Origin: an uncultured Verrucomicrobiae bacterium
GTDB taxonomy: Bacteria > Verrucomicrobiota > Verrucomicrobiia > Limisphaerales > UBA11358
DNA: 64,000 nucleotides
NCBI GenBank assembly: GCA_963755455.1
Contig: CAVWJH010000001.1
Span: 58,861 to 122,860 of the forward strand
Direction of reading: 5' to 3'
In this document: positions 1,390 to 3,537 of the stretch, piece after piece
Layout: the number at the start of each line of letters is the position of its first letter
Numbering within the stretch: position 1 is the stretch's first letter
Made by a program: the position numbers and the translations under genes
The notes under the pieces: model-generated
Told to the model about the DNA's origin: nothing
Databases searched by the model: none
What the model saw: the letters and a program-made list of their open reading frames with translations, nothing else

Positions 1390-3537
1390 TCAATCGCCGC
1401 ACAATTTCAAAAACTCCTTCTCATCAATAATCTTCACGCCGAGCTTTTGCGCCTTGTCGAGTTTTGAACCGGCTTCTTCGCCCGCCACCACAAAATCCGT
1501 TTTCTTGCTCACGCTGCCGCTCACTTTGCCGCCGAGCGATTCGATCTTCGCCGCCGCTTCCTCGCGCTTCAGCGTCGGCAGCGTGCCGGTGAGGACAAAG
1601 GTTTTTCCGGCGAACGGCCCGGCCTTGGCGCGTGGTTGAAACAGTTCGGATTTGAAATTCAATCCGGCGGCGCGCAACCGTTCGATCAAATTTTTGATTT
1701 CGTTCGCTGTCGCCATGCCAGTCGCACAAAGCTGCGCGCGATGACTTCGCCGATGTCCTCGGCCTCGGCCAGTTGTTCCGCGTTCGCGGCAAAAATGTCG
1801 TCGAGCGCCGGGAAATGCCGCGCGAGCGATTTCGCTCCGCCCGCGCCGACGTGCAAAATTCCCAGGCCAAAAATCAATCGCCACAGGTCGCGCGATTTGC
1901 TGGCGGCGAGGGCGTCGAGAAAATTTTTCGCGGATTTTTCAGCCATGCGTTCGAGGTTCGCCACGTCGTCGAGCTTGAGCGAATAGAGATCGGCCACGTC
2001 GCGCACGAGATTATTTTTCACGAGCTGCGCCGCGAGGACTTCGCCGCCGCCTTCGATGTCCATCGCGCCGCGCGCGCACCAATGTTCGATGCGCCCGCGA
2101 ATCTGCGCGGGGCAATCGGGATTCACGCACCGCCAGACCGAGCCTTCCTCTTCGTCGCCGCCGATTTCCTTGGCGACTTTTGAGCCGCATTCGGGACAGG
2201 TTTTCGGAAAATTAAATTTCTTTTCGCCGTCGCCGCGCTTTTTCAGAACGACGTTGACGACGGCGGGGATGACTTCGCCGGCTTTTTCAATCGTCACGGT
2301 GTCGCCGATGCGGATGTCTTTTTCGCGGATGTAATCCTCGTTGTGCAGCGTGGCGCGGCTGATGGTGCTGCCCGCGAGAAAAACGGGTTCGAGTTCGGCC
2401 ACGGGCGTGAGCGCGCCGGTGCGCCCGACCTGGATGGTGATGCCGCGCAGTTTGGTCTCGGCCTGTTCGGGCGCGTATTTGTAGGCGATGGCCCAGCGCG
2501 GCGCCTTGGCGGTGAACCCGGCGCGTTCGCGTTGCGCGAAGGAATTCAATTTGATGACCGCGCCGTCGGTTTCGTAGGGAAATTTTTTGCGGATTTTGTC
2601 CAGCTCGTGAATGGCGGCAATCAATTCTTCGGCCGAATGGCAGTGCCAGATTTTTTCCGGCGTTTTGAAACCGAGCTTTTTCAGCCACGCGAGAAGTTCG
2701 GATGTGCGGATGCGATGCTTTGCGCGCTTCAATCTCGGCGATGCCGTAAATCACAACGTCGAGCGGACGCTTGGCGACGATTTTGGGATCGAGTTGTTTG
2801 AGCGAACCGGCGGCGGTGTTGCGCGGATTGCCGTAAAGTTCCTCGCCCGCCGCTTTGCGCTCGGCGTTCAGTTTTTCAAAACCGGCGACCGGCATGAACA
2901 CTTCGCCGCGAACTTCCAGAGGAAAAGGATTTTGCCACCGAGGCTCAGAGACATAGAGTTTTCTTCTGAAAAATCATTTTGTTTTCTCTGTGGCTCTGTG
3001 GCTCTGTGGCTAATTTTCAAACTCAAAGGAACGCTGCGGATGGTTTTCAGATTCGCGGTCACATCATCGCCTTCGGTGCCATTGCCGCGCGTCGCGCCGG
3101 TGACGAGCACGCCGTTTTCGTAACGCAAACTGATCGCGACGCCGTCCACTTTCGGCTCGACGATCCAATCCAGTTTTTCGCCGGGCAAAAGTTTTTCCAG
3201 ACGCTTGACGAAATCGCGGACTTCCTCCTCGGAATAAGTGTTGTCGAGGCTCAACATCGGCACGGAATGCCGGACGGATTTGAATTCGCTCAACGGCGCG
3301 CCGCCGACGCGCTGGCTCGGTGAATCGGGCGCTGGCGAGTTCGGGAAATTCTTTTTCGAGTTCGAGCAGTTCGTGATAAAGCCGGTCGTAATCGCGGTCG
3401 GAAATTTTCGGCTGCGCCTCGACGTAATAGGCGTGGTCGTGCCTGCGGATTTCCTCGGCAAGCTGCGCGTGGCGCTTTTTTGCTTCAAGCTTTGTCACCA
3501 GGGAATTGTGCAGCGGCGCGCATATAAAGAAAAACAT
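1390..3537 (-). CDS. ligA: NAD-dependent DNA ligase LigA (about 5-6 apparent frameshifts; start may be GTG 3498)
   Basis: Pieces lie in four frames. They include the N-terminal HDHAYYV...ISDRDYD motif, KVDGVAISL (adenylation Lys), the OB fold, a CPECGS...CVNPDCPAQ zinc finger, HhH repeats and a C-terminal BRCT ([10 protein letters not shown]). Frame breaks are near 3320, 2925, 2725 and 1700-1740. Confidence 0.85.
2934..3010. repeat. palindromic word repeat (CACAGAG family) inside ligA
   Basis: The 5' arm is gccaccgaggctcagagacatagag and the 3' arm is ctctgtggctctgtggctctgtggc. It belongs to the same family as 41413-41515 and 60998-61066. No stop occurs in the ligA frame. Confidence 0.75.

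Follow-up and report, generated by a model that had tools for sequence, protein, structure and literature searches.

The stretch of DNA analysed here (the window) comprises 64,000 nucleotides of contig CAVWJH010000001.1 (positions 58,861 to 122,860 of the forward strand) from an uncultured soil Verrucomicrobium of the order Limisphaerales, and carries on its minus strand ligA, the gene for the NAD-dependent DNA ligase, in which a 77-bp inverted repeat (2934–3010) lies between the coding sequences for TIRSVPLSL (upstream) and LEVRGEVF (downstream). An original prediction had described this repeat as a palindrome of CACAGAG words that is read in frame and without a stop inside LigA. The gene product is LigA, with E = 3e-91 to E. 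coli LigA (2OWO) and with the KxDG and LEVRGE motifs present, and its relatives carry Pfam PF01653 and PF22745, with the Nlig-Ia and adenylation domains.

The hairpin element and its reading frame

In gene orientation, the element consists of a left arm of 25 nt (3010–2986), GCCACAGAG CCACAGAG CCACAGAG, an A/T-rich apex of 27 nt (2985–2959), AAAACAAAATGATTTTTCAGAAGAAAA, and a right arm of 25 nt (2958–2934), CTCTATGT CTCTGAGC CTCGGTGGC. Each arm is made of three tandem 8-nt units on the 7-mer C-R-C-R-R-A-G, here CACAGAG, and the arms are complementary at 20 of 25 positions. The termini are GCCAC...GTGGC, with the GTAG or CGTC tag absent, and the flanks, AAAATTA before the element and AAAATCC after it, are A/T-rich and partly palindromic. 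Folded as RNA, the element reaches −26.8 kcal/mol (z = −2.95), with one of 200 shuffles equally good, and the word CCACAGAG occurs five times in the window against 0.54 expected, a count reached by none of 100 shuffles. A search of Rfam with the element returned generic hairpin noise only and no family match, introns included. The frame of TIRSVPLSL passes through the element without a stop, so that the predicted palindrome and its read-through were both recovered. The arms of the word-repeat family are stop-free in every frame; whether an insertion is viable therefore depends on nothing but the A/T-rich apex and the remainder of its total length modulo 3.

As sequenced, ligA runs through alternating frames with four indels (Table 1). 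Compared with its close relative L001, the window is exactly one base short, four positions past the element and within an A/T run. Related contigs have a frame-restoring base near 2928, either an A after 2928 (X1) or a T after 2929 or an A after 2917 (X2), and an RNA contig (X27) also has an A inserted after 2928; related short-read contigs from soil and peat metagenomes drop the extra base at 3333. The claim that the repeat is in frame thus stands for the relatives, whose open reading frames are intact (P0001, L001) or have the base restored in their contigs, and does not hold for the raw window, which lacks that base. The genes for pyruvate kinase (pyk) and a pabB-like protein are likewise split, across three and at least three frames, respectively, and the recorded ligA product of the window (P0079) is a fragment of 129 aa on a 794-kb contig. 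The broken ligA, pyk and pabB and the 794-kb contig therefore point to an error-prone long-read assembly with uncorrected indels across the window. Frameshifts specific to ligA had been considered, as three downstream genes seemed intact, and were rejected, pyk and pabB being broken too. The 1-nt gap at the 3' edge of the element is most likely a sequencing or assembly error and not biology, for which the relatives argue strongly, short of a demonstration. For annotation this means that gene callers, faced with such inserts combined with long-read indels, split essential genes or cut them short, as happened to ligA in P0079.

Presence, absence and size of the insert

The loop of E. coli LigA has eight residues (HGENIPAR), as the original prediction had stated. 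It had estimated about 24 extra residues, and the exact size is 26: residues 161–186 of the repaired window LigA face the single residue 160 of 2OWO (between L159 and G161), and the insert amounts to 78 nt, or 26 residues, against both 2OWO and P0072. The insert is in frame within intact open reading frames in P0001, which is 89% identical to the window without gaps and has the loop KISHRDAEPQRKQKDFSEENSVSLRLGGKIPSI before LEVRGE, and in L001, with the loop KFGHRGTEAQRKEKDLSEENPVSLRLGGKIPSP. P0072, with 92% identity outside the gap, has exactly 26 residues fewer and the loop KTGLTPV, and the relatives L023 and P0003 have KVAAPQA before LEVRGE, the loops of all three being only 5–7 residues long. 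One X2 contig has 31 nt in place of 2917–3030, encoding a loop like that of L023. The insertion is therefore polymorphic, present or absent, among close relatives, and within the window clade the orthologue alignment revealed neither an equally long loop in repeat-free relatives nor a true interruption of the frame, either of which would have spoken against the original prediction. Deletion derivatives of the loop insert occur in L040, L042, L020 and P0004. The P0001 copy (DNA L284:755–910), in which word 1 is CACAGAG, words 2 and 3 are CGCAGAG and one pair is G·T, is intermediate between the CACAGAG arms of the window and the CGCAGAG arms of L003; transitions can therefore turn one word family into another at the same site.

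The LigA loop as a site of recurrent insertion

Across 43 Verrucomicrobial LigA orthologues, the loop before LEVRGE ranges from 5 to 36 residues and has at least 16 residues in 25 of them; in 13 of these 25 long loops, the DNA has a fold far superior to those of its shuffles (z between −3.0 and −9.9). The loop DNA contains palindromes of at least seven unrelated types: CACAGAG words (window, L001, P0001), CGCAGAG words (L003, L030, L036; partly deleted in L040), several kinds of GTAG-tagged hairpin (L002; L006/L007/L037; L021; L024; L038; L004/L005) and further types among the protein matches (P0002, P0005, P0043). Within a single clade of more than 90% identity the loop holds CACAGAG words, CGCAGAG words, a GTAG hairpin or nothing. 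What is new here is that one loop of LigA is host to at least seven palindrome families across the Verrucomicrobia. This constitutes a natural experiment, in which an essential enzyme accommodates palindromes of at least seven unrelated families in a single loop; it maps a permissive site beside motif III of LigA, an antibacterial target, and presents selfish DNA as a source of material for new surface loops.

In the zinc-finger loop of LigA (alignment columns 517–551), a second hot spot was noticed, at which the in-frame inserts derive from palindromes; it is occupied in L002, L003, L004, L007, L009 and L024, with RRDELHESQTESEDGDSCNSSLRDE and RRHVGALESGDTSPQSK as examples.

Transcription, predicted structure and constraint

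A contig from a permafrost metatranscriptome (X27) spans 2818–2994 and thus runs from coding sequence through the right arm and the apex into the left arm. No joint skipping the element was seen in the RNA runs examined, with DNA carry-over possible in the X27 library. An AlphaFold2 model of partial P0001, without the last ~70 residues of the nucleotidyltransferase (NTase) domain and built on a 42-sequence alignment (mean predicted local distance difference test, pLDDT, 80), gives pLDDT values of 43–59 at residues 161–190 and 86–95 in both flanks, and short strands at 161–163 and 185–187 make a stalk; on this model, the hydrophilic insert is probably a disordered surface excursion.

The window and L001 copies of the element are different at 11 of 77 positions (14.3%), and the rest of ligA differs between the two by 4.5%, 2.9% and 16.9% at codon positions 1, 2 and 3, respectively. 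The divergence of the element is near the synonymous rate, and there is therefore little or no constraint on the peptide in the window–L001 clade. The four orthologous copies (window, P0001 DNA, L001 and L003) align base for base and have a common A·G mismatch; their stem passes through A-U to G-U to G-C steps, with 87% of the cells paired and three pairs changed on both sides.

The apex motif

The apex sequence K-S-x-Q-x-x-L-F-E/D is found in many orthologues, irrespective of their arms and also where no hairpin is left (L031–L034). The full Q-x-x-L-F form occurs as QKSLF (L007), QSSLF (L031), QANLF (L033), QTTLF (L034), QEELF (L014) and QTNLF (P0008), and near misses are DDLF (L002, L030), DLFE (L015) and NDFFE (L003, L036); SKSKQKSLFEDGD (L007) and KSGQSSLFEES (L031) are loop peptides around the motif. 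Among 138 LigA sequences, the pattern Q..[LM]F is found six times in 2,102 loop residues and not once in 48,042 other residues. In a set of 185,579 species genomes, the apex DNA of L006/L007/L037 has no match beyond these three loci of ligA; it therefore does not belong to a dispersed repeat. Degenerate apices are found in the window (KQNDFSEEN), P0001 (KQKDFSEEN) and L001 (KEKDLSEEN). An origin of the LFE apex as the centre of a palindromic TTCGAA dyad was rejected, TTCGAA being present in only 4 of about 12 cases and the flanks being asymmetric.

What is new here is that the apex of several orthologues encodes QxxLF, which resembles a clamp-binding motif: the consensus of E. coli β-clamp-binding peptides is QL(S/D)LF or QxxL(x)F (PMC4976356), and T4 DNA ligase has a dispensable, disordered NTase loop of 26 residues with an LDFLF core that binds the clamp gp45 (PMC6212786). 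The QxxLF apex suggests exaptation as a putative clamp motif in some lineages. For the window copy, the reading as a passenger is retained because its KQNDFSEEN apex matches the motif poorly.

The word-repeat hairpin family and GxxExxY genes

A word-repeat hairpin is defined here by inverted arms in which two or more C-R-C-R-R-A-G words follow each other in tandem with an 8–9-nt period, closed by (A/G)CC...GG(T/C). The ligA element meets this definition and, with its 27-nt apex, encloses no GxxExxY open reading frame. The original prediction had named related copies at 41413–41515 and inside pabB, and these were recovered between nuoJ and nuoK and in the pabB-like gene (Table 1); the former is flanked on both sides by AAATAAT, with an offset between the two. 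Sister hairpins in the window have the same architecture with the related words CGCAAAG, CGCGAAAT, CACAGAT and CGCAGAT, and most of the window's word hairpins are in spacers of co-directional genes (nuoJ|nuoK, nuoK|nuoL and before pabC).

Table 1. Positions of the ligA element, its host gene and further features of the window.
Feature	Position	Strand	Basis or remark
ligA, NAD-dependent DNA ligase	1390..3499	(-)	alternating frames; four indels, near 3333, 2928, ~2720 and 1687-1724
77-bp hairpin element in ligA	2934..3010	(-)	arm layout, RNA fold, aligned orthologous copies
26 codons without counterpart in E. coli LigA or P0072	2940..3017	(-)	alignment to 2OWO and P0072
Missing-base site in A/T runs, GGCAAAATCCTTTTCC	2917..2933	(-)	frame change; contigs of relatives; comparison with L001
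CACAGAG-word copy, intergenic, nuoJ stop to nuoK start	41413..41515	.	
CACAGAG-word copy in pabB-like gene, Anth_synt_I_N / Chorismate_bind linker	60999..61067	(+)	stop-free in the frame entering the chorismate-binding domain
CGCAAAG-word hairpin (sister family), intergenic	36995..37077	.	
CGCAAAG-word hairpin	62410..62496	.	ends exactly on the ATG of an Aminotran_4 (pabC-like) gene
CGCAGAT-word hairpin, between nuoK and nuoL	41872..41947	.	
CACAGAT/CGCAGAT-word hairpin, upstream of nuoC	32161..32253	.	
pyk, pyruvate kinase	49389..50848	(-)	split across three frames
pabB-like gene	60685..61940	(+)	split across at least three frames

Beyond the window, the three-word arm CCACAGAGNCACAGAGNCACAGAG was found at more than 120 loci among the matches listed from species-representative genomes, which include Acidobacteriota, Planctomycetota, Alpha- and Betaproteobacteria, Spirochaetota, Nitrospinota, Chloroflexota and a Methanotrichaceae archaeon. 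Short gene-less hairpins account for 115 of the 168 arms surveyed, with conserved arms and unrelated apices, and those measured whole are 54–234 nt long. CACAGAG hairpins are also in frame in the HHH_6 domain of DnaE-type polymerases from Acidobacteriaceae (L118:3969–7520, at residue ~869, and L150:3720–7427), and a half-element is found in a DinG-type helicase (L185:3584–5851, residue ~469); insertion of the word family into coding frames is therefore not confined to the Verrucomicrobia and again concerns genes of DNA metabolism.

Three of the 168 surveyed arms (L124, L164 and L186) enclose a complete GxxExxY gene (TIGR04256, E = 2e-44). In these units the protein takes its first residues (MNHRGTETQR...) from the left arm, and the stop is followed within a few bases by the right arm. 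In the reverse test, made on 80 GxxExxY loci (L201–L280) chosen by core-motif patterns and with an inverted-repeat score of at least 14 (shuffled maxima 8–14), the gene is bracketed by inverted arms in 55 of the 80, across many bacterial and archaeal phyla; examples are L201:601–990, L215:601–1017 and L230:601–1002. These arms are made of CACAGAG, CGCAGAG, CACGAAG, CGCAAAG, CACGGAG or CACAAAG words, and many of the units sit in operon spacers, such as that between carA and carB in L215. That arms of the window type match the inverted repeats flanking GxxExxY (PDDEXK_3) genes is new here: GxxExxY, PF13366 and TIGR04256 receive only incidental mentions in the searchable literature, where the link to the arms is undescribed, and no description of the word-repeat arm sequences was found in that literature, itself incomplete. 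If the link between arms and GxxExxY genes reflects mobility, it would give a first functional context to PDDEXK_3/TIGR04256, a large family across bacteria and archaea.

These observations lead to a broader proposal, which we offer tentatively and hold to be somewhat less than evenly likely. The CACAGAG-type hairpins would be the terminal inverted repeats of an undescribed cross-phylum selfish cassette whose cargo is the 125-aa GxxExxY protein of PD-(D/E)XK type, and gene-less arms would have spread into operon spacers and, length and apex permitting, into tolerant loops of proteins that are essential, among them LigA, DnaE-type polymerases and DinG-type helicases. The loop of LigA before motif III would be a recurrent site of landing or retention, at which the arms turn over and the apex persists, in some lineages as a clamp-motif-like peptide.

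Interpretation of the ligA insert

We consider it probable that the ligA insert is a translated, tolerated, gene-less copy of an interspersed hairpin element and that the frameshift of the window is an error. A hairpin element would have landed in the short surface loop before NTase motif III (LEVRGE) of LigA, in the ancestor that the window organism has in common with its closest relatives, through a mechanism of mobility that may be tied to the GxxExxY PD-(D/E)XK protein. With 78 nt added as 26 stop-free codons, ligA would stay open, and the element would be transcribed and translated as an excursion that the enzyme tolerates.

Several points weigh against this interpretation. In the raw window, LEVRGEVF is in another frame than TIRSVPLSL and the insert, and the explanation of this frameshift as an error, strongly argued as it is, rests on relatives. 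The translation of the insert is presumed, and its neutrality is likewise a presumption. No clear target-site duplication is seen in the flanks of the ligA element, no GxxExxY gene is present in the 64-kb window, and it is only by inference that we assign mobilization of the arms to the GxxExxY protein. The apex peptide recurs between unrelated arms, which independent insertions of junk do not explain. Covariation in the four orthologous copies is 0.153, against 0.098 in shuffles, a value reached by 5 of 500, and the kept pairing of the stem hints at selection on the hairpin, or conversion, over pure neutrality.

Other explanations were weighed against the same evidence. The four frame changes in 2.1 kb, next to genes at 3506–6484 that look intact, could mean that ligA is a decaying pseudogene, with genuine frame breaks and with the insertion as one among several lesions. 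LigA is essential in bacteria, however, pyk and pabB show the same kind of breakage, related Illumina contigs have the frame-restoring state at 3333 and 2928, two of the four sites, and relative to L001 conservation is much stronger at codon positions 1 and 2 than at position 3, which indicates purifying selection; a pseudogene is therefore very unlikely. The palindrome might instead be a local product of the native loop, made by slippage or fold-back, as tandem words could expand by slippage and no clear target-site duplication was found. This origin is extremely improbable, since the same three-word arm with the same closing bases is present at 41413, at 60999 and at the more than 120 listed loci in many phyla, and since close relatives have a native-looking short loop. 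Removal from the message or bypass, as an intron, an intein or a translational hop, has nothing direct in its favour, although a long mRNA stem could in principle be processed. The Rfam result covers introns, intein motifs are absent from the 26 residues, the RNA contig runs through most of the element with no skipping joint in the RNA runs, and the frame is kept across orthologues with different inserts, as is expected only if they are translated, which leaves this explanation with a practically negligible probability.

A further alternative concerns the function of the loop and not its origin. The loop may have been co-opted, its apex serving to tether LigA to the β sliding clamp through a short linear motif, so that the insert would be functional and not junk. 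The QxxLF-type apices of orthologues, the confinement of the motif to loop residues, its fit to the published E. coli consensus (PMC4976356), the precedent of the clamp-binding 26-aa NTase loop of T4 ligase (PMC6212786) and the finding that the L006/L007/L037 apex DNA is not a dispersed repeat all agree with such a role. On the other hand, the apices of the window, P0001 and L001 are degenerate, the window–L001 divergence of the element resembles a synonymous rate, relatives of 92% identity manage without the loop, and the lineages with the motif are few, about 3–8 independent ones, with binding putative. Co-option is thus improbable as an account of the insert; the QxxLF apex nevertheless raises the hypothesis that a clamp tether was acquired in convergence with T4 ligase. 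A tolerated copy of an interspersed hairpin element remains the preferred reading.

Comparison with known systems

The original prediction had likened the behaviour of the element to that of Rickettsia palindromic elements (RPEs), the palindromic repeats that are inserted in frame in conserved genes according to Ogata et al. (2000), as cited in PMC3733652. The likeness is borne out, as the element is stop-free, in frame in P0001 and L001 and absent from P0072, L023 and P0003. As in RPEs, an in-frame palindrome is found in conserved, probably functional genes, it contributes tens of residues at a surface loop, and intergenic copies exist too. The ligA element has, however, no sequence kinship with RPEs, and its arms are tandem 7-mer words; the word-hairpin family spans many phyla and not one genus, and its arms also bracket the GxxExxY gene. 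By its words, its Limisphaerales host and the lack of an Rfam match, the element is not a member of the RPEs, though RPE-like in behaviour.

The original prediction had also supposed that in-frame palindromes were not known to have been described for such organisms, which is incorrect. Opitutus terrae has the most in-frame repetitive extragenic palindromes (REPs) of the GTAG/CGTC type, which encode 7–50 residues and are enriched in DNA replication and repair genes, including that of the ATP-dependent ligase Dnl1 (Di Nocera et al., 2013; PMC3733652). These REPs and the ligA element have in common the phylum, the in-frame palindromes and a DNA ligase among the hosts. The host ligase in O. terrae is the ATP-dependent Dnl1 and not LigA, and the ligA element is untagged and is not a dimer of short REPs; it lacks the features of a GTAG/CGTC REP, namely a 20–40-bp palindrome with a terminal tetranucleotide. 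In-frame palindromes are thus not new for the Verrucomicrobia, and the word-repeat family is apparently undescribed and widespread.

With MITEs (miniature transposable elements that have inverted repeats), of which in-frame insertions are known, the ligA element shares its short length, its non-coding nature, its terminal inverted repeats and its apparent standing as a gene-less derivative of a gene-bearing unit. It differs in that no clear target-site duplication is seen, in that the putative parent encodes a 125-aa protein of PD-(D/E)XK fold and not a known transposase, and in that its transposition is presumed. The loop of T4 DNA ligase is comparable as a flexible NTase-domain insertion of ~26 residues beside motif III that is dispensable for catalysis in T4, and through the clamp-motif-like centre in some orthologues of the LigA loop. 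It belongs, however, to another ligase class, is on the other side of motif III and is not palindrome-derived; the window copy has a poor motif, and clamp binding is putative.

Additional observations

Nested hairpins, with CACAGAG words outside, then CACGAAG and then CGCAGAT, were seen in L091:6030–6700 and L198 (minus strand, ~7213), and this nesting suggests that the apices or bases of hairpins are preferred landing sites. The hairpins of the nuo operon and next to pabC may have a part in the processing or stability of mRNA. An identity of the elements as integron attC sites (outer AAC...GTT) was rejected, given the poor fit to the R'/R'' consensus and the position of the elements inside ordinary operons.

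A gene for a 357-aa nuclease-like protein of the PDDEXK_4 family (298–1371, plus strand) directly adjoins the 3' end of ligA. Another repeat family, with overlapping inverted and direct repeats of TTCAAC/GTTGAA and TTTGGATCCAAA, is found at 25486–25642, downstream of a tRNA at 25216–25286.

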